A stretch of DNA of 61,892 bases, taken from IMG/VR virus record IMGVR_UViG_3300037461_001800, positions 1 to 61,892 of that record; one strand, given 5' to 3'. Both the position numbers and the translations under genes were made by a program. Shown piece after piece: positions 3,601 through 57,517 of this stretch; the stretch's first letter is position 1; each line of letters opens with the position of its first letter. The stretch is from a virus (lineage: Duplodnaviria; Caudoviricetes). Under the pieces are notes generated by a model. The model did no database searches, was not told where the DNA came from, and worked only from the letters and a program-made list of their open reading frames with translations.

Positions 3601-3859
3601 TTGGTAAAATGCAGTCAGGTCGTTCTCGGGCAATAATAGCCTCAACAACTTCAACTGTCAATGGTTCAATATATGACCGATCCGCAACAGATGGATCGGT
3701 CATAATTGTGGCAGGATTAGAATTAACAAGAATGACTCGAGCCCCTTCTTGACGCAGTGCTCGACAGGCTTGCGTGCCAGAATAATCAAATTCACATGCT
3801 TGACCGATTATGATGGGCCCACTACCAATGACCAGCACACTACGGCCCTTACCCTTCAT
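689..3859 (-). CDS. carB: Carbamoyl-phosphate synthase large subunit
   Basis: 1056 aa; [17 protein letters not shown], duplicated ATP-grasp halves ([19 protein letters not shown]), C-terminal MGS domain. Confidence 0.98.
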
Positions 3860-26815: not shown

Positions 26816-26960
26816 AATAGTTATCCACAACTGTCAACACAGAACTTAACACCGGTACAACTATAGGTTTTGTGATCTAATTATCTACATGCGGTTAGAT
26901 TACATGATATTCCGGATGTCTCCTTCTTACCAAATTCATTATGGACACCCATACGCAGCC

Positions 26961-40300: not shown

Positions 40301-40874
40301 CAGTATTAGATTCGGTGTTTGGGCTCGGAGATGCTAATGCAATTTTATACGATGATATGTCAGAAGAGTCAGTAAAATCTAGATAAAAAACCTTTCCTGT
40401 TATTTGACCTGATGGCCCGGCTGGGCCAGTTATCCCCTGAATACCCTGGGGGCCAGTTGTGCCAGTTGTGCCAGTTGCCCCCGTACTTCCGGTAGTTCCC
40501 GAAGGTCCAACCGGACCCAAAGAACCGGTTGGACCGGTTCCTCCGACTGGTCCTGGCCTACCAGCAGGCCCAGCAGGCCCTAAGGGTCCTGCTGGGCCCT
40601 GAATTGTGTCTAGTCTGGCTCCAGATTTAGCGAATTTAAATGAAAAGTTATATACGTAGGATCCGGCACCTTGCGTAATTTGAGTCAGGACAGCCTGAGA
40701 CACAAAATAGTCAGTTCCGATTCCGAGAGATTTATAAATTTGACTCCAGTTAACGGGGTCATTTAGCGTGGTGAGCGGATTTATCAGATATGAGTCCGAT
40801 GTCAATAATATAAGCGCTCTGATCGTTCCGGCTTGATCAGATGCCAGCCTCATTGTACCAATTGTTATAGTCAT
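37377..40874 (-). CDS. Collagen-repeat fibre protein with 2 C-terminal LamG domains
   Basis: Two Gly-X-Y tracts followed by two LamG repeats. Confidence 0.85.
39223..39666. repeat. About 12 tandem copies of a 36-bp unit encoding GAIGP(T/I)G(P/S)TGAD
   Basis: Repeated CCATCCGCTCCAGTTG(G/A)ACCT(G/A)T(A/G)GGACCAATGGCT. Confidence 0.93.
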
Positions 40875-41920: not shown

Positions 41921-43222
41921 TTATATACCTAGCGCTCTATTGATTAGAGTATCGGTATGTCTCAGGGCATGTTCAAGGTCAAAACATTTTTTCAAACCAT
42001 AAAATCCAAGAGTAGCTATAACGTCTGAATCGAACCCAATAGTATCTTCAAAAGGAATGGTGCTATGATACATAGCATTACGCTGAACTATTTCATATGC
42101 TCGTTTCTTTTCCATTCCAGACTTAACTAAAGCTAACATCACTGATTCACTAAAAATTAGCCCCCCAGTAAGAAGTAAGTTTTCTTTCATACGTTCTACA
42201 TTAATTTCAAGGTTTTTGATTAGATCTGTAGCTTTATCTATCATATGAGCTAAAGTCGCTGTTACATCTGGGGCGATATATCTCTCAACAGAAGAATGAG
42301 AAATGTCACGTTCATTCCATAACGCCACGTTCCTAATTGCGGGGTCTATAGCCCCACATACAATCCTGGCTAGTCCACACAAATTCTCACTGAGTATTGG
42401 GTTTCGTTTGTGTGGCATTGCGGAGGAGCCCGTTTGGCCCTCCCTGAAACCTTCTCGCACTTCCCCGACCTCGGTTCGCTGCAAATGCCTGACTGTGACA
42501 GCGAGCCTTTCGAGGGCTGCGGCGGTCAAACCGAAAGCACAAAACAAATTCGCATGTCTGTCCCTAGACACCACTTGTGTTGGGATAACTTCGGCTTTTA
42601 ACCCTAAACTAGATAAAATCTTATCTTCTAGTTCTGGACTCAGATGGGCATATGTCCCCACGGCTCCAGAGATTGTTCCAACAATATCTTCACAAGCCAG
42701 TAGAACACGCTTTTTTGCCCTATGAACTTCTTGATAATGTCCAGCTAATACTAGTCCAAAAGTTGTTGGTTCGGCATGTTGTCCATGGGTCCTACCAACC
42801 ATAGGGGTGTGTGCATGTTCGATGATACGTGCTTTAAGCGTGGATATAAGATTTTCCATACGTGTATCAATCAAACTACACGCTTCCAATAGTGTCATGG
42901 CAAAAGCTGTATCTACAACATCACTCGACGTAAGCCCGAAATGTAGCCACCTTGCTGGCGTGCCAATTCCTTCTTCTAAATGTCTAAGAAAAGCAACAAC
43001 ATCATGACGGGTCACTTGTTCAATATTAGATATTCTATACGGGTCTATTTCAAAATTTCTATCGGAAACCGCGGTGTTAATAGCTTCCAAAGTCCCAGAC
43101 GGGACTAGACCAGCATGTTGCATAACACAACATGCTGTGGTCTCAATTTTAAACCATAAATTGAATTTATGTTTATCTGACCATAACTCAACAAATTCTT
43201 GTGGGGAATACCTAGGAATCAA
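41921..43222 (-). CDS. purB: Adenylosuccinate lyase
   Basis: IPRYS, RHDV, HFGLTSSD, GRTHGQHAEPTTFG, GSSAMPHKRNP; TTG start. Confidence 0.97.
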   Translation of the reverse strand: MIPRYSPQEFVELWSDKHKFNLWFKIETTACCVMQHAGLVPSGTLEAINTAVSDRNFEIDPYRISNIEQVTRHDVVAFLRHLEEGIGTPARWLHFGLTSSDVVDTAFAMTLLEACSLIDTRMENLISTLKARIIEHAHTPMVGRTHGQHAEPTTFGLVLAGHYQEVHRAKKRVLLACEDIVGTISGAVGTYAHLSPELEDKILSSLGLKAEVIPTQVVSRDRHANLFCAFGLTAAALERLAVTVRHLQRTEVGEVREGFREGQTGSSAMPHKRNPILSENLCGLARIVCGAIDPAIRNVALWNERDISHSSVERYIAPDVTATLAHMIDKATDLIKNLEINVERMKENLLLTGGLIFSESVMLALVKSGMEKKRAYEIVQRNAMYHSTIPFEDTIGFDSDVIATLGFYGLKKCFDLEHALRHTDTLINRALGI

Positions 43223-43259
43223 GGTATTTTCCTTTCAAAAAGAAGTAAATTCTAAAAAT

Positions 43260-43652
43260 TTATTTTCTTCCTGGTGGCTTAAGTGGTCTAGGTAGATTAT
43301 ATGGAAATTCCATTGGTTTACCCATTGGAACTTTTCCAGAGCTCCATAGATTCTTCACACCTAAATCGTCAAATCCTAACCGCTTCCAAACTACATTGAT
43401 CTTTTCACGCTGTAGTTTGGTTATTTTATCAACTTTTTTGTCAAGTCCATCTTTTATCTTTTTAAGTTCTTCCTTTTCTGAATCATCTAAGTCTTTTTCG
43501 TGGCTTAAAAGAACTTCTAGCATGTCAAAATAGTCTGATCTATTCATAAGAACGCCTTTCGTTATTGAAAAGTATTCATTATCGTAGCTCTCTATATCTT
43601 CTTCACAATTTATAGCAACACTAGATACGTCGATATAATATTGTCCATTCAT
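43260..43652 (-). CDS. Hypothetical protein
   Basis: Ends PRPLKPPGRK; start may be 43547. Confidence 0.6.
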   Translation of the reverse strand: MNGQYYIDVSSVAINCEEDIESYDNEYFSITKGVLMNRSDYFDMLEVLLSHEKDLDDSEKEELKKIKDGLDKKVDKITKLQREKINVVWKRLGFDDLGVKNLWSSGKVPMGKPMEFPYNLPRPLKPPGRK

Positions 43653-43656
43653 ATTA

Positions 43657-44010
43657 TTACTGTTCCATAATTTTCCTTACCAAGGAAGTATCTAAAATTT
43701 GGGAAACAACATTATCCCACAGTTTGGTTTGTCTTATTTCGGCTTTATACCGTTCACTTAAAATAAATATACTTTTCGGTGTTTCAAACGGGGAAATAGC
43801 ATCAACAACCGCTCTTGCAGCTCTACGAGCAAGAAGTGACGCAATTACTTCATACGATTTTTCATCTTTATCTGATAGATGTACCCTCATGTCAGGACAT
43901 TCATGATATAAAGGACCAATGCCAATAGCCATACTCCAAACATTTGATTCCTTCTCATGAACAAAAGGTTGGATTTTGTTCAAAGCAGGGAGCTTCAGCA
44001 TTATTTTCAT
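43657..44010 (-). CDS. Hypothetical protein with the shared C-terminal tag
   Basis: GGAGG RBS; ends LVRKIMEQ. Confidence 0.65.
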   Translation of the reverse strand: MKIMLKLPALNKIQPFVHEKESNVWSMAIGIGPLYHECPDMRVHLSDKDEKSYEVIASLLARRAARAVVDAISPFETPKSIFILSERYKAEIRQTKLWDNVVSQILDTSLVRKIMEQ

Positions 44011-44025
44011 GATCCCTCCATTTAA

Positions 44026-44367
44026 TTATTTATTACTTGTACGTCCCACTGCACGTTGTAGTGCCTCAACAGCACAAGTATGGAACTCATTTAACTGTTT
44101 TGGTAATTTCATTCCTGGAAAAGAAAGGATATCACTTAATGCGATATTCTCTGCTTGTTCAACCCATTCATTGAGTTCATTTAGGTCATTGTTCTCGAGG
44201 CCAAATTCGAATATTATCTTATCAGGTGTTCTATTACCAAACACAATTTTCCAATAATCTTCATAATCAATATTTGTATAATCATTCGGGTTAAATATTT
44301 CTCTAAATATTTCCCTAAAAAGTTTGATCATTTTTGACTTATTTGTTACTAGTGACATTGATTTCAT
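44026..44367 (-). CDS. Hypothetical protein
   Basis: 113-aa ORF in a run of minus-strand genes. Confidence 0.6.
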   Translation of the reverse strand: MKSMSLVTNKSKMIKLFREIFREIFNPNDYTNIDYEDYWKIVFGNRTPDKIIFEFGLENNDLNELNEWVEQAENIALSDILSFPGMKLPKQLNEFHTCAVEALQRAVGRTSNK

Positions 44368-44523
44368 AAAATGATTTTGAGGCTTCGAAAAAGCTGATAG
44401 TTAATCTATTTTATGCAAAATAATTGCTAAAGTTGAAACAACTAGATCATAAGCTATGACGTTTCGATTGCACATGGCTCAAATGTCACAAAAAATTTCT
44501 TAGTATATATATACGTTAATATA

Positions 44524-45003
44524 TTACACCGCTTTTGACATTGGAACGCTGCGTTTATCAGTTTCCTCAGGAAATTCATTTACATCAATTATTTCACCAT
44601 CAACAACAATAATGTTGTTAACGTCTGCACTTGGCCCAGAAGACCTAATCATAGCATCTTTCAATACGCGTTTAACCCATAATTCAGGGTCCACTCCAAA
44701 AACCTTAGAAGATTTCGATGTATCAACAGAAATGAATTTACCACGTCCATCGTCGCCCAAGATAGACTTAAAATGTACTTTCCCATTAAAAAGATTCCCT
44801 GACAGTATGAATGTATTACCAAGAAGATTCAATTCAAGTCTAAATGAACACTCATTTAGACTACCATTAATATTTTTTATTGAATATTTGGCAACCCGAT
44901 TCCCAATCTGAACTGTCCCAGTGTCAATTAATGGGATTCCAGAGATTTTTAGAAAGTATGAAAACACCCTTTTAGCTATTCTAGTTATCATTAAACTTGC
45001 CAA
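44524..45003 (-). CDS. Hypothetical protein with N-terminal RIAKRV
   Basis: MITRIAKRV near the start. Confidence 0.6.
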   Translation of the reverse strand: MASLMITRIAKRVFSYFLKISGIPLIDTGTVQIGNRVAKYSIKNINGSLNECSFRLELNLLGNTFILSGNLFNGKVHFKSILGDDGRGKFISVDTSKSSKVFGVDPELWVKRVLKDAMIRSSGPSADVNNIIVVDGEIIDVNEFPEETDKRSVPMSKAV

Positions 45004-45113
45004 ATTATGAAAACTGTAACGATTATATATTTAATTCTTCTAATTACCATTGTTTATGTTGTTAACGATATATAATTTGATTATCTGGCTTCCTATCAAT
45101 ATAAATCAACTCA

Positions 45114-45131
45114 TCCGTATGAAAATACGGA
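45114..45131. other. Intergenic hairpin with a GAAA loop
   Basis: TCCGTAT-GAAA-ATACGGA; no clear U-tract. Confidence 0.35.
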
Positions 45132-45183
45132 CATTATCCAAGTCCATTTATTGTTAACCGCCCTAACGTCAACATCACGTTAT

Positions 45184-45435
45184 TTACCCATTTACCAAAT
45201 CTAACTCAAGATACTGAGTCAATCCCTTGTTACATTGATTTTCAAAAGAGTACACTAAAAGTCTCTTTGACACTTTATAATTTCCATCAACTTTTCTGAT
45301 TCTATTCAAATCTCTCGGATGCTTCAAATTTACCTTGAAGCGTATACACACACCTTCTGGAACAATTGGCATGTCGCTGACTCTATACTCAACGTGTACT
45401 GGAAGATCCTTGAATACTAAATATGTGCGAATCAA
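45184..45435 (-). CDS. Hypothetical protein
   Basis: 83-aa ORF with TTG start. Confidence 0.55.
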   Translation of the reverse strand: MIRTYLVFKDLPVHVEYRVSDMPIVPEGVCIRFKVNLKHPRDLNRIRKVDGNYKVSKRLLVYSFENQCNKGLTQYLELDLVNG

Positions 45436-45531
45436 TGTCTAACTGCCTTCCGTTGTCTACACCACTTCTACTGCTTCTACTGCTTCCACCTTCTCCACTG
45501 TTTCACATTCCATACGTTTCAACATATGAAT

Positions 45532-45852
45532 TCATGCCATATAGCTCTTACTGCGCTTTGATGTATTAGCAAATAATGCGGATCGAAGAGAAAAAAGAGC
45601 AAGAAAACTATTGTTTTCACAACAAGGGGCTACAGATAATGATCTGGCTACTTGTTGCAGCAGGATGGACCAAAAGGAACCAGTCCATCGAGCAGTCCCC
45701 TTTTCTCTAATCTTTCGGATCATGCCTCTGTCTAAAAGAGCGGCTTTTCGCACACTGGTTCTGAGATAGAAAAACCGCAGGGAATAGGCATGCTGTAATG
45801 TCATGTATATTCCCTCAGTCCGCACATTGCAAAAAACAATACAGGTGAACAA
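45532..45852 (-). CDS. Hypothetical protein
   Basis: Fills the gap divergent from 45853; start codon uncertain. Confidence 0.4.
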   Translation of the reverse strand: MFTCIVFCNVRTEGIYMTLQHAYSLRFFYLRTSVRKAALLDRGMIRKIREKGTARWTGSFWSILLQQVARSLSVAPCCENNSFLALFSLRSALFANTSKRSKSYMA

Positions 45853-46608
45853 ATGTCAGAACAGAAGAAAACAAGAGGTGGCAGAGTTAAGATAGACATG
45901 CAGAAAGTCGAACAAGCTGTCCATAAATGCATAAAAAGATTCAGAGGAGCGAACGAAAAACGTTATATGGCAGCACTTCTATACGCCATGCTCACAAATA
46001 ATACGATCCCTATTGATCTACTAGATACGATCCCTACCTCTTCAGATGAAGTTGGAAAAACTAGGTTTGATCAATTATATGATGCTGCAATGAGTATTGC
46101 GTTTCCTAGTTATAGACTGGAAACTCTAGAAAGACTTTTAGGACCTGATGCAGAAATTTCAGAAAATACGAAAATCTGGAGGGTAATCCTACCTCAGAAA
46201 TTCAAGTTGGCCCATGTGCTTATAAGAGCAGACTCTTATCAAGAAGCCTTTGCCCTCGCATGTGACTATGCATGCCGTGCATCATTGCGCGTTTATGGAA
46301 AGATTCCACACGATTTGACTGTAAGAGTAATGTTCATGACAGAAAAAGCAATTCGAAGGAAGCTTGATCTACGATGGGCAAACCGAGTAAATAAGAGAAG
46401 ACAACTACAATTGATTGGACGTGTATATTCTCCTAAAGAGATAGGAGGAGCCAGAGTAGCGGCTATTGGTCCGCCAAGCAGTCCAGCATTCCAGCTTGCA
46501 AGGTACATAGAAGCTAAGGATTTAGGAAAAATTTTAAGGTCAAAAAACTTGGTTCGAGTATCTTCTGTTGAATCTGAAGTATTTATTGAAGAAAATTTAG
46601 CTATTTAA
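45853..46608 (+). CDS. Basic hypothetical protein directly upstream of the purZ-like gene
   Basis: 251-aa ORF on the same strand, 17 nt before 46626. Confidence 0.7.
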   Translation: MSEQKKTRGGRVKIDMQKVEQAVHKCIKRFRGANEKRYMAALLYAMLTNNTIPIDLLDTIPTSSDEVGKTRFDQLYDAAMSIAFPSYRLETLERLLGPDAEISENTKIWRVILPQKFKLAHVLIRADSYQEAFALACDYACRASLRVYGKIPHDLTVRVMFMTEKAIRRKLDLRWANRVNKRRQLQLIGRVYSPKEIGGARVAAIGPPSSPAFQLARYIEAKDLGKILRSKNLVRVSSVESEVFIEENLAI

Positions 46609-46625
46609 AAGTCAAAGGAAAAATC

Positions 46626-47843
46626 ATGAAACAAGGGAAATTCAACGTTATTATAGACGCATTTTGGGGAAGCTCTGGAAAAGGGAAAGTGTCGGCGTGG
46701 CTTGTTGATTACTTCGGAGTAAAAAATATATCTTCGTCGAACTTCCCTAATGCTGGGCACACTTTCCAATTTGGCGAGTATAAGTTTGTCGCCAAAGCTA
46801 TCCCAACAGCACTTGCACTGAAACATGCAAAAGGGATGGGAGTTAAGGGGTGGCTTTCTCCTGCTTCTGGACTAAGTGTGTCGGATCAAATGAAATGGGA
46901 TAGGCTCATTGTTGAATGGGCTCAATCAGGAAAACCTGATCTGATCATTCACAACAGGGCGTCAATCGTAACACCCGAACACGCTCAGGCCGAAAGAGAT
47001 GGAACGGGGTCTACAAAACATATTGCATCAACAATGCAGGGATGCTCCGCAGCTATGATTGATAAGATTCTGAGAAAAAACGAATGTTTGTTGGCAGGAT
47101 CCAAATCGGTTGGGGAATGGACTCCAAATTCCGTCATACTTCCTAACGGGTTATCTTTATCAGAGTCTGATATCGAAGAGTTTGTAACACGAACTATGAT
47201 GTTGGACAGTATGCATTTCAGGATTAGCGTCCAAAGCCTGATTAAGGGTGGCAACATGTGGCTTCATGAAGGGAGCCAAGGTTATGCTTTATCAATTGAT
47301 CACGGATCAAGTTATCCACACTGCACAAGCCGAAATTGCACTTTGCAAAAAGCAATGGACGACATGGCCGTTCCCCCAGACATGGTAGGGGACGTTTATC
47401 TTAATTTAAGAACACATCCGATTCGTGTTGGAAACGTTATAGAAGACGGTGTCCAACATGGATATTCTGGAGATTTTTATCCAGACTGCAAAGAACTTAC
47501 ATGGGAACAAATAGCTGAAGAATCTGGAATGCCTGACGATGAAGCTAAAGCACTAACTGAACGCGAGCGTACCACAGTCACAAAACGTGTACGACGAGTC
47601 TGTTCATTTTCGTTTGTGGGGCTTGAAGATGCGGTAGTAACAAATGGAGCCACAAAGTTGATACTGAATTTTGTTCAGTATCTAGACTGGAATGATTATG
47701 GGCTTCGTGGTGATAAGAAGGCCTTCAACAAATTATCAAAAAAGACTCGGTCCATGATCGATAAAATCGAACAAGTGGCAAATGTTCCGGTAGTTTTGAT
47801 AGGAACTGGCGCCGATCATGAAGATATGATAACACTTATGTAA
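46626..47843 (+). CDS. purZ: PurZ-type adenylosuccinate synthetase homologue (putative N6-succino-2-amino-dAMP synthase)
   Basis: PurA fold (NAGHT, EGSQG..L.IDHG..YP.CTSR, PIRVG, TTVTKRVRR) with GSSGKGK for GDEGKGK and NFVQ for TKLD. Confidence 0.72.
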   Translation: MKQGKFNVIIDAFWGSSGKGKVSAWLVDYFGVKNISSSNFPNAGHTFQFGEYKFVAKAIPTALALKHAKGMGVKGWLSPASGLSVSDQMKWDRLIVEWAQSGKPDLIIHNRASIVTPEHAQAERDGTGSTKHIASTMQGCSAAMIDKILRKNECLLAGSKSVGEWTPNSVILPNGLSLSESDIEEFVTRTMMLDSMHFRISVQSLIKGGNMWLHEGSQGYALSIDHGSSYPHCTSRNCTLQKAMDDMAVPPDMVGDVYLNLRTHPIRVGNVIEDGVQHGYSGDFYPDCKELTWEQIAEESGMPDDEAKALTERERTTVTKRVRRVCSFSFVGLEDAVVTNGATKLILNFVQYLDWNDYGLRGDKKAFNKLSKKTRSMIDKIEQVANVPVVLIGTGADHEDMITLM

Positions 47844-47844
47844 T

Positions 47845-49365
47845 TCACCTAGTTAGTACAAACTTGATTTTTTCTTTCCCGAAGACTTTCTTCCATCCGT
47901 GTTTACTGGCGTAAACAGTTTCCAGCATATGCACTGATCTTGCTTGATTATATAAAGTTTTCTTGTGCATAACCCACCCATCTTTTCTCACATATACGTA
48001 ATCCGGTTTAACCCGGCTAACTTCTTTCCAATTTGAAGCTTTATATATCGTCCCATCATGCCCAAATGTTGTATCTGAAAATGCCACTAGGCTACGGCAC
48101 TGTGGGTATCGATTAAAGAACATGTTGGAAGCGCGACTCAAAAAATATGAGCAAAAATTCTTCTTCTGACGCATCGGATGTATACAAAAACGATCTAACT
48201 CGAATGTTTCTTTGGGCGTTGATCCGATACTAGTGGCGACTTCCTTCCGGGAAACAGGGCTAAATTTCGCCAAAGCTATTATCTGGTCGTTCAACATTGC
48301 TGCAATAGTCATTTTTCCTTGTTTACCGAATTGAGCATAATGCCATGATGACAAGAATTTTTTCGCTTCATTCCATGAAGGTTCAGATATGGACAAATCA
48401 GACCAGGCAAAATCAAGTGTTGGTAGACTTGCTAGTCCGATTGCCTGCTTCAATTTATTCGTATACTCTCCGTTAACAATGTCAAAGTCCCATATATACA
48501 CAATCTTCGAATCTGGCACTGATGAACGCAAATACGAGTATTTGGACCTATCTCTTCTTTCATTATTGGGCAGAGTGTGCCAATATTCTCCTTGGACTTC
48601 AATGAATAAATTCAGCGATGGTATATAAAAATCGAAATTGTACGGCCCGATTGATTTATTGTATATGAAGTCAACCCCAAGATCGGATAATAGGTTTTGA
48701 ACTGAAGTTTCTCCGCTGGACATTTTTCCACCACGTGGAAACCCCTCCAAACCGTTGGCAATTTTTTCTTTATATTCAGGGTTTTTAAAGCGTTCTAAAG
48801 CCAGTTGTCTATGCAACTCCCGATATTCAGTATTGGATAGGGCGGTTTTATGAGCGGCTCTTGCCTCGGGGGTCCATAAAGCTGAAGTTTTTTCTGCGAT
48901 ATATTTGTCTGGGTCGCTGACATACTGTGAACGGTTTCTTTCAGAAACCAGGTTTCTATGTTCCTCGGATTTAAATTTTTCAGAAATTCGTTGCCTTTGT
49001 TTACTGGCATATTCAACATTTTCCCATGCAGCTTTGGACTGGGAAGACCTCTGACTACGACCAGCAGCTGATCTAGCTGCAGCAGAACTGTTTTCAATGA
49101 TCTTTGTGGCAATTTCGGGGTTAGACCATGATTTCTTGGACTGAGAAGAACGGGCAGCTCTCCCCTCTGGGGACCTTGCAATACAAAGCCCGCACCTATA
49201 CACGCCACGCTTTCTCAACGTTCTACAGATCGCCAAGCGTGTTGTTTGTATTGCCGTCCCACAAAGGCTGCATCGAGCAAAACATTTACTGTTGAAACGT
49301 GGCGGTAGGGTATACCCAAATTGTATTGAAGTTTCTTTTTGATCCACGTAATAAGTATAATCCAT
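47845..49365 (-). CDS. Zn-ribbon + DUF559/Vsr-like endonuclease + Mom/Hef-like GNAT domain protein
   Basis: CSLCG/CGLC; DFYIP..IEVQGEYWH; ELDRFC...AFSDxxxGHxGTIYKASNW. Confidence 0.75.
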   Translation of the reverse strand: MDYTYYVDQKETSIQFGYTLPPRFNSKCFARCSLCGTAIQTTRLAICRTLRKRGVYRCGLCIARSPEGRAARSSQSKKSWSNPEIATKIIENSSAAARSAAGRSQRSSQSKAAWENVEYASKQRQRISEKFKSEEHRNLVSERNRSQYVSDPDKYIAEKTSALWTPEARAAHKTALSNTEYRELHRQLALERFKNPEYKEKIANGLEGFPRGGKMSSGETSVQNLLSDLGVDFIYNKSIGPYNFDFYIPSLNLFIEVQGEYWHTLPNNERRDRSKYSYLRSSVPDSKIVYIWDFDIVNGEYTNKLKQAIGLASLPTLDFAWSDLSISEPSWNEAKKFLSSWHYAQFGKQGKMTIAAMLNDQIIALAKFSPVSRKEVATSIGSTPKETFELDRFCIHPMRQKKNFCSYFLSRASNMFFNRYPQCRSLVAFSDTTFGHDGTIYKASNWKEVSRVKPDYVYVRKDGWVMHKKTLYNQARSVHMLETVYASKHGWKKVFGKEKIKFVLTR

Positions 49366-49422
49366 GCAACCATCTTACCATAAAGAATTAGACACGTCTA
49401 TTACATAGACAGGGGGTCAATC

Positions 49423-49797
49423 ATGTCAGTTGTACAAACGTCAAATGAGTCACATGTTAGTTGTGAAAAGACTGAGCGTAAACACTGGAGGGAATTTGTT
49501 AGTCAACGAATTCGCGATACTGAAGATCAAATGAGTTCTAAAGTCTTCGCCGATAATACGTTAACAATTGCCATAGGACCGGATGACCTAACGCACGTAT
49601 CTATCTATGCTTGGCAGCACAAGTTGAGATTTGTTATTTCATTCGAGATAAAAGCCAACACCTCGCCAGAGGACAACCGTGCAAAAGGGGTTGTCAGACT
49701 TCCTCCTCCAACTGGAGATGAAGAAACTGACCTGAAGATTGAAGAAGAAGCTAGAATGTTAGCTGGATTTAAATGGCTTGAGATTCAGCGTCATTAA
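49423..49797 (+). CDS. Hypothetical protein
   Basis: 124-aa ORF with AGGGGG RBS. Confidence 0.6.
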   Translation: MSVVQTSNESHVSCEKTERKHWREFVSQRIRDTEDQMSSKVFADNTLTIAIGPDDLTHVSIYAWQHKLRFVISFEIKANTSPEDNRAKGVVRLPPPTGDEETDLKIEEEARMLAGFKWLEIQRH

Positions 49798-50341
49798 TTT
49801 CTCTTCGTCGTCTCTTCATATGAATCCACAATTGATCTCGATTATTTTGCATATATTCAAAACATGTTTTGAAATACCCGACAACCGGGTAGGCTGCATC
49901 TTTCCTCATTAAAAGTTCCAGAATCGTTTTTCCTCCACTTTCAGAAAAGAGCCATTCCTCATCAATGGGTATATCCGGTTCTTTCTGACTCCAAACGTTT
50001 CCATATGGAAACAACATTAGGACGAATTCCTTCTTTTCAAAATGTGGCTTTGGAAGAGCGATAAACTTCTCCTTGCGCTTAATTGCAAAATACACACCAG
50101 GAGGCAAGTTAACACCTACTGGTGTGGTAGTTACCCATCTCTTTATGCTCATCCATTTAACTTCGGAAGCCTTGTTCCCCATCTGCTTACGACATTGTAA
50201 AGAACAGTTGTAAAGAGCTGAAGGGGATAAGCCACATTCCCACGGTTTGAAGTCGGATGGAACATTTGGGAAAGTGTGCAACGCCTTTAAATGAAAAACT
50301 CCCAAAGCAGAAATTTTTCGTTGTATGTTTGGGTCTACCAT
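49769..50341 (-). CDS. Hypothetical protein
   Basis: 190-aa ORF divergent from thyX. Confidence 0.6.
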   Translation of the reverse strand: MVDPNIQRKISALGVFHLKALHTFPNVPSDFKPWECGLSPSALYNCSLQCRKQMGNKASEVKWMSIKRWVTTTPVGVNLPPGVYFAIKRKEKFIALPKPHFEKKEFVLMLFPYGNVWSQKEPDIPIDEEWLFSESGGKTILELLMRKDAAYPVVGYFKTCFEYMQNNRDQLWIHMKRRRREINDAESQAI

Positions 50342-50352
50342 GGAGAATCACC

Positions 50353-51687
50353 GTGTCAAATGTGTTTTGTTTAACTGGACCTGATGGAAGGCTTTTAGAC
50401 CCATCCTTACAAGCAACCATACTTGCTAAGTATTCACGGTCACCAGATTCTGCAAGAGAAATCCTAGCCAGAATTACGTCGGAGGAGTCTGATAAATTTC
50501 ACGATAAGTGGGTGGTGAAATTTGGACATAGTTCGGTTGCAGAACTAGCTACCATACCGATATGCATGGAAGGTATATCGATTGTTGCATCAAAAGTTGT
50601 TGAGTCAATGCAACGGGGTGCTTTCTCAGAAAAAAGTACCCGATATCAGCGTTTTTCTAGTGAAAGCTTTATCACCCCACCTGGGGGCCCAGATACAATG
50701 AAAGCATTCGCTAGCCGAATGTATGCAGCATATGACAAGCTATACGAACCGATGATGACACGGTGTGCCGTGCTTATGGGTCGAGATCCGAATGATCGTA
50801 AGTCTTTCGATAGGGTCCTGAAAGCCAGGGCTTTTGATAGTCTCAGGTATTTGCTCCCGGCGGGAACTGGAACGAATGTGGCTTGCGTGTTGAATTTCAG
50901 AGATACACGAGACTTGATTTCAACAATGCTGGGACATTCTAACCCTGAAATCCAGAAAATTGGGGAAGATGTGCTTGCCGCAGCAAGTGGAATTAGCCCT
51001 GTGCTTATGCGTCATGCAGTACCAAACGTTTTTGAACCAAAAATTATGTCTTTAGGGGCGTTAAATTCACAATTTATCCCTGAGAGACCCAATTGGTATG
51101 TATCACTTGATAACACAAGTGTATCACAATCAGATGCTAAACAATTTCTCTCGAAACTTATTGAATCTAGGTACAATATGGACTGGGAAACCTTCTCAAG
51201 ACATATGACAGCCAGGCCTGAGCACTTACAAGTCCCAAAAATTTTTGATACAATTACCTTAACATTTGACATCCTGATGGATTATGGGGCTTTCCGCGAT
51301 CTACAGAGACATCGAAAATGTGAACAGTTTGTTGAGCCACTTACGACCCAGTATGGGTTCATGATTCCTGATGACATAGCTGGATCAGATCTCGAATCCG
51401 ATTATGTGTCGGCTATGGAATCGGTAGCATTATATGATGATGACAGGGTCATTTATGACACTGATTTATTCCAATATATGATCCCGATGGGTTATCTACA
51501 TAGGTCATCGTTTCAAATGACCATGAGGGAACTCTATTATATAGTAGAGCTACGAACTCGTCCACACGGCCATATTTCATATAGACGAATAGCCTATAAA
51601 ATGTATGAGCTAGCTAGGAGAAACTTCCCAGACCTTATGGAATGGTGTAGAGCGGTGGAGCCTACATCGATCGGTGATCATGGGTAA
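50353..51687 (+). CDS. thyX: Flavin-dependent thymidylate synthase, long two-domain form
   Basis: AKYSRS, FGHSSVAE, SEKSTRY, FRDLQRHR, ELRT..GHxSYR; probable GTG start after GGAGA. Confidence 0.85.
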   Translation: MSNVFCLTGPDGRLLDPSLQATILAKYSRSPDSAREILARITSEESDKFHDKWVVKFGHSSVAELATIPICMEGISIVASKVVESMQRGAFSEKSTRYQRFSSESFITPPGGPDTMKAFASRMYAAYDKLYEPMMTRCAVLMGRDPNDRKSFDRVLKARAFDSLRYLLPAGTGTNVACVLNFRDTRDLISTMLGHSNPEIQKIGEDVLAAASGISPVLMRHAVPNVFEPKIMSLGALNSQFIPERPNWYVSLDNTSVSQSDAKQFLSKLIESRYNMDWETFSRHMTARPEHLQVPKIFDTITLTFDILMDYGAFRDLQRHRKCEQFVEPLTTQYGFMIPDDIAGSDLESDYVSAMESVALYDDDRVIYDTDLFQYMIPMGYLHRSSFQMTMRELYYIVELRTRPHGHISYRRIAYKMYELARRNFPDLMEWCRAVEPTSIGDHG

Positions 51688-51692
51688 GCTTT

Positions 51693-52031
51693 TTAGAAAG
51701 ATTTAACAACAACGTCTGATGATGTTATTACCGGGTTTTTTTCTCTTTCCGAGAGAACTGGAGGAGAAAATACTTTTTCCACCTTAAATACAACAATCCC
51801 GCTTTCGTCTAAAAACGGAACCTCCGCAATAGTTAAACACGGACCATCTCTGTCGAATTTCATTATTGACTCTTTTGAAAGCAGACTCTTGTCGATCGGG
51901 ATTTTACTATAACCGCCAATTATACGACATAAGATTCTTTTTCCTTTAAACATCAAAGGACTCGCTCCTTTGGATGGACACGATTGCGCCACAGCGCATT
52001 TACCGCATTCTCGTTCTAAATTCATAGGCAT
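51693..52031 (-). CDS. Cys-containing hypothetical protein
   Basis: CGKCxxxxSCPSKG. Confidence 0.6.
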   Translation of the reverse strand: MPMNLERECGKCAVAQSCPSKGASPLMFKGKRILCRIIGGYSKIPIDKSLLSKESIMKFDRDGPCLTIAEVPFLDESGIVVFKVEKVFSPPVLSEREKNPVITSSDVVVKSF

Positions 52032-52068
52032 ACCATACTGCTCAAGGTTTTATCATTTTTCTTTTTAA

Positions 52069-52965
52069 ATGCCCACTAGAGCGAAATCAGCTAAATCTGT
52101 CGTTTCTATCATTCAGGAACGAGAAATAGCCAGACCACTAGACGATATTGGGGTATTTGAAATTGATCTAGTAGAAAATCGAATTATATGGACAAACGAG
52201 TGTGGAGTATGCAAATCTGGATACACAATTGATCAGATCAAACATATGACATTATTTGATCTGACTCCACAGGCATCTCATGGATGTATCCATGAGATTG
52301 TTTCCAATATAATCGAAAATAAGCCAATTGTTGATAAAGAACTAACTTCCATATGGCCTATGCAGACATTTGATAAAAAAATAATTTGGTGGGCCATTAC
52401 CAAATTAGTAATTGAATATCCGATAGTTTTAGTTTATGGTAATCACATTCAAACAACTGGTGACTCAGATATGTCATATGTTTTTATGTGTACATTCATG
52501 CGCGCGGCTAATGGTCAAGTTGGATTATATAATCAACTTTCAGAGTTAAAAGCCTGGACTGATGACCAGATAAAGAAGTTATCAGATGAGGATAAAAACC
52601 TTCATGCAGGACTTAGCTCTCTTGAAAGGAAGCTTGAGGAAGCTTTGACAGCGTCTAAAGAAGCCGCTGAAACTTCAAGGGCTTCAGCCGCGATGACTGA
52701 GAATTTACAAAAAACATTCCAAAACATCGAGACAAAATACGGATCCGAAATTCTGAAACTTGTAAACATTGACTCTGTTCATGATAAAAGGATCGACGCC
52801 TTTGAAAAACATATACAAATGACCACCGATCTAGCAATCGGGTCTATAAAAATGCAAGCCGAAAATTATTCCAAAAATTTAAGCAGAAAAATTGTCATTC
52901 CTGTGTCAGTTATAGCAGGAATTGTGACGATTATCCAGATTTTAGTTGAACGTTTTGTGAAATAA
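52069..52965 (+). CDS. PAS-like domain + coiled coil + C-terminal membrane anchor
   Basis: IGVFEID...IIWTN..C..SGYT.DQI....LFDLTP; heptad region; hydrophobic C-terminus. Confidence 0.65.
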   Translation: MPTRAKSAKSVVSIIQEREIARPLDDIGVFEIDLVENRIIWTNECGVCKSGYTIDQIKHMTLFDLTPQASHGCIHEIVSNIIENKPIVDKELTSIWPMQTFDKKIIWWAITKLVIEYPIVLVYGNHIQTTGDSDMSYVFMCTFMRAANGQVGLYNQLSELKAWTDDQIKKLSDEDKNLHAGLSSLERKLEEALTASKEAAETSRASAAMTENLQKTFQNIETKYGSEILKLVNIDSVHDKRIDAFEKHIQMTTDLAIGSIKMQAENYSKNLSRKIVIPVSVIAGIVTIIQILVERFVK

Positions 52966-52980
52966 TATTTATCTAGAATG

Positions 52981-53769
52981 TCATTTGCGAGTTGGCTTGG
53001 TTACATTTAGACTTGTAGGTGGTGTTGCTGGATAAGTGCGATTGAGTGTTATAGCATTTTTCCTAGCTGTGTTCACATCGTCTCGACGTACCCACATACG
53101 AAGTCTTTCTTCTATGTCGTTTGCACTTCCAGACTCAGTTACGTCTGGATATTCATCTATACTGAATTCATAGTCATAGACTATGTCACTAAGCATTATT
53201 TTTCCCCAATACCTATCCCCAACATCGAATTCTAGTGCTGGTAGTCCACTATCGTCCGTAACATGAACGAAATTCCATCCCTTTCTACTCATTTCTATTG
53301 ACAGCTTCTCAATTTCATCTTTGTGTAAAGCCATCAAGACTGGTCTTGGGTTAGTTCTTACAAACTTAACCAAGTTAGAAAGCCGCTTCAACACTGCAGA
53401 AGCAACTCTCGGATCAATTTTTTCGTGTTCTATAGCCTCAGCAAGACGTTCCAAGAAAACTACAGGACATGATGCATATTTTTCAAGAAAAGCGTTACCA
53501 GGGATGTCTCCTATCATAAAATTGATTATATCTTCAGTTGGTTCTGAAGAATACCCCTCGTCCTTGTCATTTAAGTCTTCTACTGATTGGGCTATCCAGT
53601 GATATATAGTCATCACTGCCTTAAGTTTCAAACGGTACGGATAAGCTTCAACTTCGATTGATCCATTATCTAAGAATTTGACGTCATAGTCGGCCCTTCG
53701 GCCTATAAGATTCAAAACATCATCAATTGTAGTAATGGCCACATGAAAATCCATGTCACAATGAAACAA
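52981..53769 (-). CDS. Hypothetical protein
   Basis: 262-aa acidic ORF. Confidence 0.65.
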   Translation of the reverse strand: MFHCDMDFHVAITTIDDVLNLIGRRADYDVKFLDNGSIEVEAYPYRLKLKAVMTIYHWIAQSVEDLNDKDEGYSSEPTEDIINFMIGDIPGNAFLEKYASCPVVFLERLAEAIEHEKIDPRVASAVLKRLSNLVKFVRTNPRPVLMALHKDEIEKLSIEMSRKGWNFVHVTDDSGLPALEFDVGDRYWGKIMLSDIVYDYEFSIDEYPDVTESGSANDIEERLRMWVRRDDVNTARKNAITLNRTYPATPPTSLNVTKPTRK

Positions 53770-53776
53770 TTAAAGC

Positions 53777-54733
53777 TTATGCTGAATTCAGTTCAATGAT
53801 TCTTTTCATTGTGGTCATCATGACGGTGTTTGGAGACAAGTCCCCTAGAAGTCTAAACCCGGCTGCTTTTCCGTGTCCACCTCCTCCAAAAGATTTGGCA
53901 AGATCAGAAGCTGAAAAACACCCATTCGTCCTAACAGAAACAATTGTACGCATGTCTTCGTCTTCATGAAGATAGAAATATCCAACTACAGCATCATACA
54001 ACATATCATTCATGATACAATGAGCAATATCGCTCATTGAACCTCTCTCTGAGAGGTTGAAGAAAGCTATACGAGTAGTTTTGTCCCCAATAATTATGTC
54101 ATATTTAACAGATGATCGAGTGAAACTCTTTGATGCTCGAAGAACTTTATCATAGAGTTTTTCTCCAATAAATAAAAGCTCCTTCATCGGGGGAACTTTC
54201 CCAGTGTTGGCCATATTCAGTGCCCATTTTTGGCCGTATAGGAGGAGAGCATGGGAGAGTGCACACGCTTCATACCAGTCTGGAGATGTGTCTTTCCATG
54301 TGTCTCTAACCATGCAGAGATGTGTAAATCTCTCCCAGGTTTTTAGATCTTCAGGAGATATCTTATCACCAACTAGCGGAAGCATAATATTTGAATAGAC
54401 CAGCATTGTTCCGGATTCATCTGGTCCCCCATATATACCATTAAGACCATCTATGATATGAGACACTGTTTCATGATGATCAAGGACGATCGGGGACGAC
54501 CCCTTCCATTCTTCCCATCTGTCTTTTGGGGGAGTGATATCAATAAATAGCTGTCTAGGTCTCACCGTTAGGTCTGTATGAGACTTTGTACTATACAGTA
54601 TGAAATTTGTTGGAGGGGGTTGAACTCCCATGGCAACATAGGCTGCTGTGCAAACCATGGCAGCCCCAATTCCATCCGGGCATCCAGAATGGGATACTAT
54701 TTCGGACACTTGAAGAAGGGCATCTCTATTCAT
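53777..54733 (-). CDS. DHH/DHHA1 phosphoesterase
   Basis: HxxCPDG, FIDI, LDHH, SVR, FGGGGHxxAAGF. Confidence 0.88.
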   Translation of the reverse strand: MNRDALLQVSEIVSHSGCPDGIGAAMVCTAAYVAMGVQPPPTNFILYSTKSHTDLTVRPRQLFIDITPPKDRWEEWKGSSPIVLDHHETVSHIIDGLNGIYGGPDESGTMLVYSNIMLPLVGDKISPEDLKTWERFTHLCMVRDTWKDTSPDWYEACALSHALLLYGQKWALNMANTGKVPPMKELLFIGEKLYDKVLRASKSFTRSSVKYDIIIGDKTTRIAFFNLSERGSMSDIAHCIMNDMLYDAVVGYFYLHEDEDMRTIVSVRTNGCFSASDLAKSFGGGGHGKAAGFRLLGDLSPNTVMMTTMKRIIELNSA

Positions 54734-55673
54734 TATTTCTATCCTTCACCTGACTGACGATTGTGTCGACGGTTAGGCTCAACTGCTCAATTGAGCCGTT
54801 ATTCATAACTACATAGTCAAATTCCGAATCTGGGATGGTTTCCTGTTCAGTTTCAGATCTGTGGTTATATGGGGCCTTTTCGATCCCAGGTCGCTTCACT
54901 CTAATTAAGATTGGCCTGAATTCATTTGACTCTTTGGCGGCTTGTCTAGTATATAAAATTTCATGCCAATGACGGAAATCAGAGAAGCATGTGATGACGT
55001 CCCCAGTTACCTCCCGACGAGTCTCGACATTATCAATCACACACTCATTATCTATGAGCCCAAGCATGCGGTCATAACAATATACCGGATGCCTTGTCTG
55101 ATTAAGTCCATCTGTCTTAAAACAGGCTAACTTCCTATGAACTTCTATACCATGCCTTACCCAAGTAAATAAATACATTTTGTTCATCAGGTTACAATAT
55201 TTCTGCAGAGCTTCACGCGGTGATAAGAAAAACCTAGGATCGGTTTCTTCGAAGAATAGACGTATATACCCTTCTTGTTGTGAATGCCGGAAATGATCAA
55301 GAGTTTCCATACCAAGATCATTGAGAAACTGCACCTCATCTCCTTTAGAGAGATCTAAGTCTATACACCACCAGTGTTTGGACGGATCAGTGTAACTGTC
55401 TTGACTGGTGTCAAGTGTTAGTTCACTTTGGCTTGTTCGACGTCCTTTATATGCTGTAACTATTGTTTTGGGATATCGGCAGTCCCCGGCATTTCTCATA
55501 TAGCTAGGTCCAAAGAGTTGGTCCCTAGTAAAACCATATACCTCTGCCATATGGCGCTTTGCTGGGTCTGTTAAACCGGTATGGACCGCTCCATGTTTAT
55601 TCACAAGCCTATAACAAAATTCATCTTTTCCAACTCCGGAAAACCCAGACACACAAAACATTAAATGAGTCAT
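54726..55673 (-). CDS. Deoxynucleoside monophosphate kinase (phage dNMP kinase type, with insertions)
   Basis: P-loop SGFSGVGKD, DPAK..F..DQLFGPS, SPREALQ, SDFRHxHE, HRSE, NNGSIEQL. Confidence 0.8.
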   Translation of the reverse strand: MTHLMFCVSGFSGVGKDEFCYRLVNKHGAVHTGLTDPAKRHMAEVYGFTRDQLFGPSYMRNAGDCRYPKTIVTAYKGRRTSQSELTLDTSQDSYTDPSKHWWCIDLDLSKGDEVQFLNDLGMETLDHFRHSQQEGYIRLFFEETDPRFFLSPREALQKYCNLMNKMYLFTWVRHGIEVHRKLACFKTDGLNQTRHPVYCYDRMLGLIDNECVIDNVETRREVTGDVITCFSDFRHWHEILYTRQAAKESNEFRPILIRVKRPGIEKAPYNHRSETEQETIPDSEFDYVVMNNGSIEQLSLTVDTIVSQVKDRNNE

Positions 55674-55709: not shown

Positions 55710-56417
55710 TCATCTGCCTTTACCTCGAATAGACAGGGTCCCAAAAACACTAGCGCTATACCAAAGAACGAGATCTATAATTCCAAGCGGCAGTCTTTTA
55801 CCACTGTTGCTCTCGTGTTCTTTCTGAAGTGTCTCACACATGGTTACGCAATCTTTGAACCCCCAATGTTTAGCCATTCGTACAAGATGAAGGTCTGGTT
55901 TGATAAACTCGAGAAGTCCGATATTGCGCGCTAGATGGAAACAAGTGACCTTTCCAATATATGGAAGCTTTGAAAGGAGCTCTGGAGAATTAAGATTCGC
56001 TTTTTTCCAAGCGTCCCACCCAATACCATTCGGTCCGTCAATACCTTTCTGCATTAGTTTTGCTGTTGCATGGACAGCCTTTGCCTTCTGTGAGTTGTTG
56101 CATACGGGTGCAACATATCTCATAACCTCAGAGAATTCCACGCTGGCTAGAGACTGCCATTGCCCATAGGCGCTCAAAAGTCTCGGTATGAATTTCCCAA
56201 CGGCTTTAGCAGAAAAACCCGTTGCATGAACGACCCATACGTACTCTTGGAAAAAGAAATTATCGTCTACATCTTCAAATTTGGTGGATGAGAGTGTCTC
56301 TAACTGCTCTGGATAGTGTTGTTCAACAAATTTTAGAGCAGCTTCGAAATACTCAGGGGGTCCCGCTGACAAATCTGGCGGGTTATTAATTCCAGATAGC
56401 GTCTTGTGTGGTTCCAT
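55710..56417 (-). CDS. Helix-hairpin-helix DNA glycosylase-like protein
   Basis: LSKLPYIGKVT..HLARNIG...KPDLHL. Confidence 0.7.
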   Translation of the reverse strand: MEPHKTLSGINNPPDLSAGPPEYFEAALKFVEQHYPEQLETLSSTKFEDVDDNFFFQEYVWVVHATGFSAKAVGKFIPRLLSAYGQWQSLASVEFSEVMRYVAPVCNNSQKAKAVHATAKLMQKGIDGPNGIGWDAWKKANLNSPELLSKLPYIGKVTCFHLARNIGLLEFIKPDLHLVRMAKHWGFKDCVTMCETLQKEHESNSGKRLPLGIIDLVLWYSASVFGTLSIRGKGR

Positions 56418-56661
56418 AACTTTCGATCTCACAATCGAAAGTTATGGCAATGTCGTCCCTCCATTCCCTGTTATCCATGACGTGTTCTCTCCTTTCCTGT
56501 TGAGCTTTTTTCCAACAAGAATGACAGAAAATGGAATGGTGATCGTCTGAAGTGAAACGTCGAACAGACTTAAACCCATTCCCACAATGAGAACACGTTC
56601 CCGATTCTGGATTCCATAATATGTGCATCTTCCTACGTTTCCGTGATGATAGAAACGTCAT
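56386..56661 (-). CDS. Small zinc-finger protein
   Basis: CSHCG...CHSC. Confidence 0.55.
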   Translation of the reverse strand: MTFLSSRKRRKMHILWNPESGTCSHCGNGFKSVRRFTSDDHHSIFCHSCWKKAQQERREHVMDNREWRDDIAITFDCEIESYGTTQDAIWN

Positions 56662-56953: not shown

Positions 56954-57517
56954 TTAGTCAGGTATGAAGTCTTTGCGTGTGGTGAGCGCGACATACGGCA
57001 AACCTGCTTCGCACAGCGCCTGGCCCCCGCCTTCTAGGCGGTCGACGATGACCACGACGCCCACCGGGTTGAGGCCTGCCTGGCGAAGAGTGTCAGCCGC
57101 ACGTAGGGTGGAGCCACCCGTCGTGATGACATCTTCGAGCAGCACGACGGGCATACCGGGACGCATTGCTTGGTCACCCTCAATGAGCTTCTTCATTCCG
57201 TGATCCTTCTGCGTCTTGCGAACATAGAAGGCAGGCATGGGGCGGTTGCGGAGATAGCTGGTAAGCGAGACGGCGGAGGCCAGAGGACAGCCGCCAAGCT
57301 CAACTCCGGCGACGGCTTCGGCGGGCTCGGGCAATTCATCGAGGGCATCGAACATGAGCTTGCCGAGCAGCGCGTGGCCCTCGGCGGTTAGAGCAACCTG
57401 CTTGCAGTCAATAAAAAAGTCGCTCTCGCGGCCGGATGCGAGAATAACGCGCTTGCGCTGGAAGGAACGTTCGGTGAGAAGTGCAATGAGTCTATCTCGT
57501 TGGGCAATGTTGATCAT
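56954..57517 (-). CDS. pyrE: Orotate phosphoribosyltransferase (GC-rich gene)
   Basis: LASGRES..FIDC, VRK..KDHG, LEDVITTGGS, VDRLEGG. Confidence 0.96.
   Translation of the reverse strand: MINIAQRDRLIALLTERSFQRKRVILASGRESDFFIDCKQVALTAEGHALLGKLMFDALDELPEPAEAVAGVELGGCPLASAVSLTSYLRNRPMPAFYVRKTQKDHGMKKLIEGDQAMRPGMPVVLLEDVITTGGSTLRAADTLRQAGLNPVGVVVIVDRLEGGGQALCEAGLPYVALTTRKDFIPD

Follow-up and report, generated by a model that had tools for sequence, protein, structure and literature searches.

PurZ starts the synthesis of 2-aminoadenine (Z), which substitutes for adenine in the DNA of some phages. A PurA-family gene predicted to encode PurZ was identified in the IMG/VR record IMGVR_UViG_3300037461_001800, a single contig of 61,892 bp which was analysed over its whole length (hereafter referred to as the window). 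A preliminary description of this DNA had proposed a largely self-contained phage pathway from inosine monophosphate (IMP) to dZDP, the deoxynucleoside diphosphate of Z, to which PurB, a deoxynucleoside monophosphate (dNMP) kinase, GuaB and GuaA would contribute alongside PurZ. The genes around purZ are as follows (lengths in amino acids, aa).

41921-43222, minus strand: PurB, adenylosuccinate lyase, 433 aa (TIGR00928 equivalog)
45853-46608, plus strand: u251, conserved 251-aa protein, directly upstream of purZ
46626-47843, plus strand: predicted PurZ (N6-succino-2-amino-2'-deoxyadenylate synthase), 405 aa, divergent megaphage subclade
47845-49365, minus strand: Mom-like DNA modification protein, 506 aa (Pfam Mom PF25680, E 2.1e-18; PHROG 1384, E 2.8e-26)
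50257-51687, plus strand: ThyX-like thymidylate synthase, long, 476 aa (Pfam Thy1, E 1.4e-32; PHROG 36506, E 2.4e-30)
53777-54733, minus strand: DHH/DHHA1 phosphoesterase, 318 aa, 8-bp overlap with the kinase gene
54726-55673, minus strand: dNMP kinase (T4 gp1-like, with insert), 315 aa (PHROG 139)

Homologues of the PurA-family protein with 41-73% identity are present in seven IMG/VR contigs of 108-427 kb, four of which carry direct terminal repeats and were counted as complete (362,524, 376,674, 393,220 and 426,960 bp; G001 to G004). Synteny with G001, the closest complete relative, was examined by local tblastn of 58 window proteins and falls into three blocks. Window 10.5-25.5 kb corresponds to G001 35-6.6 kb, window 27-43.7 kb to G001 360-351 kb, which joins the first block across the G001 ends, and window 45.9-61.6 kb to G001 248-272 kb. 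On account of these blocks, the window is a fragment of ~62 kb, about one-seventh of the genome, of an uncultured wetland/sediment megaphage. Open reading frames (ORFs) are cut off at both of its ends, and since the CheckV completeness of the record is only 14%, genes absent from the window are not necessarily absent from the phage. The label 'provirus' given to the record in IMG/VR probably stems from the density of cell-like metabolic genes. The guanine plus cytosine (GC) content of the four complete relatives ranges from 40% to 57%, and the clade of purZ-bearing megaphages therefore probably spans quite different hosts.

The only synteny break in the window lies at ~44-45.8 kb (interval 43652-45853), where the GC content drops to 0.35 and none of the small ORFs has a homologue in the relatives; the start codons of the divergent ORFs adjoin at 45852/45853. 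The relatives carry ribonucleotide reductase (RNR) ~9 kb upstream of u251-purZ, a place that is taken in the window by the purB block. As a check against a chimeric purB-purZ junction, independent contigs were examined: one from an RNA library extends over 45562-46259, the intervals 43202-43854 and 44503-45410 are covered by others, and among the matches listed no single independent contig bridges the whole purB-purZ interval.

Gene presence was scored by tblastn (E <= 1e-4) in the four complete relatives. All four possess u251, PurZ, u190, the ThyX-like protein (encoded 2-4 kb from purZ), u112, u262, the DHH protein, the kinase, a PG-binding protein, a Dam-like methyltransferase, an HD gene and a MazG-like gene. 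An HhH-GPD glycosylase, a dCMP deaminase and the Mom-like gene are present in three of the four, PurB, GuaB, NT5C and ThiF in two, and GuaA, PurD, CarA, CarB and PyrE in none. Conservation thus extends to the unit u251-purZ-(mom)-u190-thyX-like...DHH-kinase; neither PurB nor the GMP (guanosine monophosphate) branch belongs to it, and both are therefore regarded as accessories of this phage. The u251 gene is found directly upstream of purZ in six of the seven related loci and in all four complete relatives, and is probably co-transcribed with it. No match to u251 was found in Pfam or PHROG and no usable one in the Atlas, and its AlphaFold2 (AF2) model is unusable (pLDDT 55.6); the 190-aa ORF u190 (49769-50341) had no match in the Atlas either.

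Identity of the PurA-family gene

The gene product matches PF00709 of Pfam with an E-value of 4.9e-28, and a six-frame search of the whole record confined PF00709 to this one ORF. A canonical purA is thus absent from the record, as the preliminary description had noted, and in the five relatives searched, the four complete and one incomplete, all matches likewise fall in one ORF, leaving a single PurA-family gene per genome. Ranked against the PDB, the protein is closest to the PurZ of phiVC8 (E 4.7e-35) and of S-2L (1.1e-26), followed by an archaeal (Pyrococcus) PurA (1.6e-22), the structure 7VF6 (4e-12), which is the PurZ0 of Archimedes (PMC12884076), and E. coli PurA (2e-9).

Manual inspection of a 13-sequence alignment places Ser16 of the window protein, within the loop G-S-S-G-K-G, at the site of E. 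coli PurA Asp13. A Ser at this site is reported for 100% of 147 phage PurZ and an Asp for 99% of PurA (PMC12884076). In the same alignment, S135, C233, T234, R267-V268 and T316 agree with residues of the dGMP pocket of S-2L and phiVC8 PurZ, described as S131, Y203, C204, T205, R240, V241 and T273 in S-2L and F12 and T262 in phiVC8 (PMC8342488; bioRxiv 10.1101/2025.10.22.683976). The stretch N348-F349-x-Q351-Y352 stands where PurA has the GTP-specifying (N/T)KxD; the pocket for the base of ATP/dATP comprises N294, F295, N297 and Y298 in phiVC8 and N305, F306 and Q308 in S-2L (PMC8342488; bioRxiv 10.1101/2025.10.22.683976). An exhaustive HMMER scan retrieved 2,050 library relatives at E <= 1e-3, including 186 at E <= 1e-30. 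Among the best 150 of the 2,050, the G-x-x-G-K-G loop is recognisable in 125, all 125 with Ser at the Asp13 site, and the N-F-x-x-Y motif is found in 110.

A maximum likelihood tree (LG+G4) was inferred from 84 rows and 381 columns. The rows comprise the window protein, the seven IMG/VR relatives, 53 library rows (every second of 105 full-length representatives), three known PurZ, Wayne PurZ0, phage MaF61, the PurA-like protein of Rizal and 17 prokaryote-assembly loci, with PurA of haloarchaea, spirochaetes and other bacteria among them. The window protein falls inside a clade of 72 rows together with the PurZ of phiVC8, S-2L and Bm1 (ultrafast bootstrap, UFBoot, 100; SH-aLRT 98). PurZ0 and the mycobacteriophage PurA-like type are each represented in the tree by a single sequence. 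The clade is sister to Wayne PurZ0, and all ten Asp-bearing PurA together with the Rizal PurA-like protein lie outside it. Within the clade, the megaphage genes form a separate subclade of 31 rows (94/95) and the characterised PurZ one of six rows (100/99). The signature residues and the phylogeny together suggest that the PurA homologue is, as had been proposed, a PurZ, belonging to a new and abundant megaphage subclade, and the window is predicted to encode a functional PurZ.

Several close PurZ homologues, among them P0002, P0003, P0004, P0009, P0014 and P0023, are 747-1197 aa long with the match split in two to three stretches; they may carry inteins or inserted domains and were excluded from the tree. 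Genes of the PurZ clade were also observed on myxobacterial chromosomes, in Sorangium sp. So ce131 (L035, 452-7871) and Chondromyces apiculatus (L034), which are 42-43% identical and belong to the megaphage subclade. In Sorangium, purZ is followed by an overlapping gene for a 253-aa dUTPase-domain protein and a phage integrase lies ~5 kb upstream, so that the locus resembles an integrated element carrying PurZ and Dut as a pair. Comparison of u251 with the ORF upstream of the Sorangium PurZ by hhalign indicated that the two are unrelated (probability 0.1%).

Companion genes and a possible route to dZ

The distances given in the preliminary description, about 3.4 kb from purB to purZ and about 7 kb from purZ to the kinase, are borne out: the start of purZ lies 3,403 bp past the end of purB and the kinase gene 6.9 kb beyond purZ. 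PurB scores 418.8 bits against TIGR00928 (cut-off 326.2) over residues 1-418 and contains the Pfam domains Lyase_1 and ADSL_C. It also acts at the SAICAR step of de novo purine synthesis.

The kinase matches PHROG 139, 'deoxynucleoside monophosphate kinase', over residues 6-312 (E 4.3e-19), and a profile of six homologues matches T4 Dnk (1DEK; E 0.019). It can be aligned with T4 gp1 at the P-loop, at the LAxPxK substrate motif and over the C-terminal region; unlike the 241-aa T4 enzyme, it has 315 aa with an insert of ~70 residues, and its score against Pfam DNMK PF21448 is 19.7 bits, under the cut-off of 27.1. On these similarities it is assigned to the phage dNMP-kinase family. In each complete relative the kinase gene adjoins the DHH gene, whose product matches PHROG 4771, 'DHH phosphoesterase' (E 2.8e-23), and Pfam DHHA1 (26.1 bits, cut-off 25.9). 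The sole GenBank phage match of the kinase is an annotated dNMP kinase of Myxococcus phage Mx1, with 39.7% identity over 20% of the query (E 8e-5).

The genes of the GMP branch and a further nucleotide enzyme lie farther to the left in the window.

15688-17490, minus strand: GuaA (glutamine-hydrolysing GMP synthase), 600 aa (PRK00074, 496 bits, cut-off 400)
23343-23924, plus strand: NT5C-type 5'(3')-deoxyribonucleotidase, 193 aa (Pfam NT5C, E 5.2e-18; PHROG 2643, E 7.6e-6)
24446-25510, minus strand: GuaB (IMP dehydrogenase, IMPDH, without CBS insert), 354 aa (Pfam IMPDH)
25526-26830, minus strand: PurD (GAR synthetase), 434 aa (GARS_N, GARS_A and GARS_C, all above cut-off)

The presence of guaB, guaA and purD in the window is thus confirmed by curated models and by the GARS domains. 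GuaB matches Pfam IMPDH with 428.8 bits (E 1.8e-128); the lack of the CBS insert keeps its score against the IMP-dehydrogenase model, 388 bits, under the equivalog cut-off of 481.5. The translation holds a GSICTT loop and a DRY flap. GMP reductase as the identity of this gene was rejected on the flap motif and on the model scores, the best GMP-reductase models reaching 209-225 bits. The genes on either side of GuaA and PurD are syntenic with G001, and these two are therefore considered phage-borne rather than host flank. By their sequences PurB, GuaA, GuaB and PurD are all judged to be real enzymes.

No homologues of DatZ, MazZ, DutZ, DmtZ or a polymerase were found in the window, either with Pfam on 50 ORFs of at least 100 aa (32 of the 82 such ORFs being left out as nested or overlapping) or by tblastn (best match E 0.28), in agreement with the preliminary description for DatZ, MazZ and the polymerase. 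That description had also called for a search of the rest of the genome, which was carried out on the relatives. The RNR large subunit is encoded in all four complete relatives, ~9-10 kb from purZ, and PolA in all five relatives. A YfbR/DatZ-family HD gene scores above the Pfam cut-off in the four complete relatives (0/1 incomplete) and lies ~9-10 kb from PolA. It overlaps a co-directional gene for a protein of 170-255 aa in all four, with the core motifs E-A-G-E and S-E-L-P-D-V.

The identity of this overlapping gene was examined by several methods. Pfam MazG-like PF12643 matches it in three of the four relatives (23.7, 19.3 and 14.7 bits against a threshold of 27; E 5.7e-5 to 0.037), the best profile match is the integron MazG (iMazG; E 0.018), and hhalign against S-2L MazZ gives an E-value of 4e-4 with a probability of 35% over 34 columns. 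Its AF2 model has a mean pLDDT of 62 (core 70-86). Among the best 25 Foldseek rows, 23 are all-alpha NTP pyrophosphatases (dCTPase/DCTPP1, iMazG and archaeal MazG), the other two being E. coli MazG and a cap-binding complex; the TM values are ~0.6 normalised to the target and the best E-value of 0.035 is above the 0.001 line. These lines converge on a putative MazG-like protein, none being significant alone. In G004 the MazG-like gene also encodes a C-terminal Multiubiquitin domain (PF14452, E 1.6e-6). As a DatZ-like HD gene and a MazG-like gene overlap in all four complete relatives, the DatZ and MazZ of the present phage would probably lie outside the window, in its unseen part. Substitution of DatZ or MazZ by the NT5C or DHH enzyme, which the preliminary description had considered, is thus unnecessary.

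These assignments allow a route to dZ to be proposed. Phage GuaB and GuaA would push host IMP to GMP, and host kinases together with the phage ribonucleotide reductase (seen in the relatives only) would give dGDP and dGTP, from which the MazG-like pyrophosphohydrolase (relatives only) would return dGMP. PurZ would join dGMP and aspartate with the use of ATP or dATP to form N6-succino-2-amino-dAMP, and phage or host PurB would take off fumarate to leave dZMP. The T4-gp1-like dNMP kinase would convert this to dZDP and host Ndk to dZTP, while the DatZ-like HD enzyme (relatives only) would remove dATP and the phage PolA would build Z:T DNA. From the genes we infer the substrate of each enzyme, the location of the DatZ-like/MazG-like pair in the unseen part of the phage and the occurrence of Z in the virion. 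A working dZ pathway in which the phage PurB and kinase take part is, on this sequence-based reading, somewhat more probable than not. Of the flux from IMP to dZDP envisaged in the preliminary description, the identities of PurZ, PurB, GuaA and GuaB and the family of the kinase stand; the genes are not conserved as a unit, and PurB, GuaB, GuaA and PurD are better understood as accessories that boost flux than as obligatory steps of a closed pathway. A self-contained pathway is thus a reasonable interpretation that the data support in part.

The likeness to the Z-clusters of S-2L and phiVC8 consists in the signature residues and the shared clade of PurZ and, for S-2L, whose mazZ and datZ are adjacent, in the HD gene of the relatives adjoining a gene for a small all-alpha NTP-pyrophosphatase-like protein. 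The differences are considerable. The window PurZ is only ~30% identical to the characterised PurZ, the megaphage clade having insertions of its own; the cluster of the relatives is dispersed, with the DatZ-like/MazG-like pair ~200 kb from purZ, and their genomes measure 360-430 kb against 39-45 kb. In the window, the phage itself encodes PurB, a dNMP kinase, GuaA and GuaB, whereas the published dZ pathway uses host PurB and GMP kinase (bioRxiv 10.1101/2025.10.22.683976; PMC12783734). With respect to the PurZ0 actinophages (Wayne, Gordonia Ghobesvirus, Hiyaa), the window PurZ is sister to PurZ0 and not within it, and the DutZ and DmtZ searched for in the window are lacking.

A phage PurB beside PurZ is not new at the annotation level, since both are annotated in Streptomyces phage Hiyaa. 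A stretch of ~5 kb in Hiyaa holds a 'PurB-like adenylosuccinate lyase', a dUTPase and a PurZ-type synthetase, PurZ and PurB being ~4.4 kb apart, and Gordonia phage Sapo (Ghobesvirus) has a PurB-like gene beside replication genes. By tblastn, 37 GenBank phage records match the window PurB, which is a full TIGR00928 equivalog and is 39% identical to the Hiyaa protein over 87% of its length. A literature search for 'PurB-like' together with 'phage' found nothing, nor was PurZ found together with jumbo phages in a search that did not cover the supplementary tables on huge phages. The six Z-phage records examined (phiVC8, S-2L, Wayne, Sapo, Bm1 and Hiyaa) measure 39-83 kb.

The genes thus suggest that giant phages may also use 2-aminoadenine in their DNA. 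If the clade does make Z-DNA, 2-aminoadenine genomes would extend to phages of 360-430 kb commonly met in wetlands and sediments, the Z-cluster would not have to form a tight cassette, and steps supposed to belong to the host (PurB, nucleoside monophosphate kinase, GMP supply) would be open to takeover by the phage. It would then have to be asked what role a conserved Dam and a Mom-like enzyme play on adenine-free DNA.

Competing readings

A number of observations weigh against the dZ pathway proposed above, and they are considered here with the readings that they favour. The case for dZ in the virion is one made from genes. PurB is found in two of the four complete relatives, away from purZ and in G001 ~100 kb from it; GuaB is likewise found in two, and GuaA and PurD in none. 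Such a distribution would be expected if these genes met the general nucleotide-supply load of a huge phage, with PurB and the kinase not specialised for dZ, the proximity of purB and purZ resulting from rearrangement, and PurB, GuaA, GuaB, PurD, CarAB and PyrE boosting the pools; PurZ may still make some dZ. The synteny break with low GC content between purB and purZ, the company of CarAB and PyrE (0/4 relatives) beside the purine genes, and the SAICAR step at which PurB also serves agree with this account. De novo purine and pyrimidine genes are reported as common in huge phages, scattered in genomes >200 kb (PMC7162821, Al-Shayeb et al. 2020), the main text of which contains 0 occurrences of 'adenylosuccinate', the supplementary tables being outside the search. 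The gene set of the window does look more like such a general load than a dedicated dZ operon. A general load leaves unexplained the conserved PurZ with its Ser and ATP-pocket signature and the kinase-DHH pair in the same module, and it is compatible with the dZ pathway rather than exclusive of it. As the account of the locus it is considered rather unlikely.

The second group of observations concerns DNA modification. The Mom-like gene is convergent with purZ, the two stop codons lying one base apart, and a Dam-like gene is present in the window, as in all four complete relatives.

12998-13828, minus strand: D12-class N6-adenine DNA methyltransferase (Dam-like) (Pfam MethyltransfD12, E 1.3e-54)

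Dam and Mom-like enzymes act on the N6 of adenine, and Z keeps that amino group. Their presence counts against a Z genome, since it is in DNA with adenine retained that one would expect them, and no Dam-like methyltransferase was found in five known or annotated Z phages (phiVC8, S-2L, Wayne, Bm1 and Hiyaa). In G001, too, the Mom-like gene adjoins purZ; G002 and G003 carry it elsewhere in the genome, and G004 lacks it. Its Mom domain covers residues 325-484, and the N-terminal part of the protein matches PHROGs labelled HNH/homing endonuclease.

The replication genes of the relatives add to this group. The DatZ-like HD protein has Y and S/T at the positions of S-2L DatZ W20 and I22, a difference from S-2L, and it matches DatZ (E 6.7e-4) no better than E. 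coli YfbR (5.5e-4). In favour of Z, a Y20-T/S22 pair is described as prevalent in YfbR-like proteins of dZ-enriched contigs (bioRxiv 10.1101/2025.10.22.683976). The MazG-like assignment is sub-threshold in every single method, and Pfam MazG PF03819 was found in none of the five relatives, with a good control; DUF550 PF04447 was also found in none, a weak negative as its control matched in none of 14 genomes. PolA of the relatives has no special likeness to that of DpoZ phages, the best tblastn match being an uncultured 485-kb phage and the others unrelated phages.

The Dam and Mom-like genes, the PolA and the DatZ-like protein would suit a phage whose DNA keeps adenine or contains Z only in part. 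The PurZ homologue would then have a different use, for instance in partial Z incorporation, in making a nucleotide-derived small molecule or in manipulating the pools, and Dam and the Mom-like protein would be the main anti-restriction strategy. S-2L, however, copes with a non-selective polymerase (PMC8065100), PurZ, MazZ and DatZ being sufficient there (PMC8342488), and every complete relative holds candidates for all three functions of this triad. E. coli methylases, Dam included, are reported to accept Z sites in vitro, with an efficiency at least ten-fold lower (PMC8342488). The conserved Dam and Mom-like genes are thus in tension with a Z genome and do not refute it, and retention of adenine, in full or in part, appears distinctly improbable. 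The two sets of genes could also be combined. The clade of 360-430 kb megaphages would then have genome-wide 2-aminoadenine, fed from IMP by its own GuaB, GuaA, PurZ, PurB and dNMP kinase, and the N6 of Z would be decorated by Dam with or without the Mom-like enzyme to give a doubly modified purine. This is a speculative and quite unlikely arrangement; if true, it would make these much the largest genomes with Z and provide the first case of hypermodified Z.

The remaining objections concern PurZ itself. Four contact positions are unlike those of characterised PurZ (W14 for F/Y, H232 for Y203, A134 for G130, and A396). The NCBIfam PurZ model NF038379 is the best-scoring one and reaches 175.3 bits against a cut-off of 300, which is taken to reflect the ~30% identity to the seed phages of the model, and the archaeal PurA model PRK04293 follows 12 bits lower with 162.9. 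An archaeal-type PurA acting on IMP, with the nearby PurB finishing the synthesis of AMP, would account for this score and for a W14 shared with E. coli PurA, but it can hardly be reconciled with Ser in place of the catalytic Asp13, N-F-x-Q-Y in place of (N/T)KxD, the PurZ-type T316, C233 and S135 and a position inside the PurZ clade (100/98) apart from all Asp-bearing sequences.

Occurrence and neighbouring genes

At E <= 1e-5, 2,957 relatives were retrieved, and nine of the best 120 lie on contigs >200 kb. An identical PurZ is encoded on a contig of 109,643 bp. Among GenBank phages, the 13.7-kb region has no megablast match. Four public runs from four studies, one of them a probable source run, contain words of the 7.4-kb purB-mom stretch; the depth reaches about 140 in one run (X1). 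In the metatranscriptome (RNA) library of another study, 34 contigs at >=99% identity cover 30 of 30 bins of window 40-58 kb; the runs are available as contigs only, and this cover says nothing on transcription, strand, transcript ends or base chemistry. Two further wetland runs hold the stretch at low depth. The same phage thus recurs across studies.

At the left end of the window (689-4992, minus strand), full-length subunits of carbamoyl-phosphate synthase, CarB (1056 aa) and CarA (378 aa), are encoded; they may be phage-borne or may lie at the host junction of the 'provirus' call. PyrE (56954-57517, minus strand) is not a purine phosphoribosyltransferase. GuaA is flanked by ThiF-family E1-like and R2K-clade ATP-grasp proteins (14394-14951, 14979-15440 and 17795-18679). 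An HhH-GPD DNA glycosylase-family gene (55710-56432, minus strand) adjoins the kinase gene, and its base specificity could be relevant to discrimination between A and Z. The ThyX-like protein is about twice the usual length, and its Thy1 domain occupies residues 57-248. Three very large LamG/concanavalin-like proteins (8052-10457, 31701-35534 and 37377-40874), one with collagen repeats, are poorly conserved among the relatives and are probably tail fibres.

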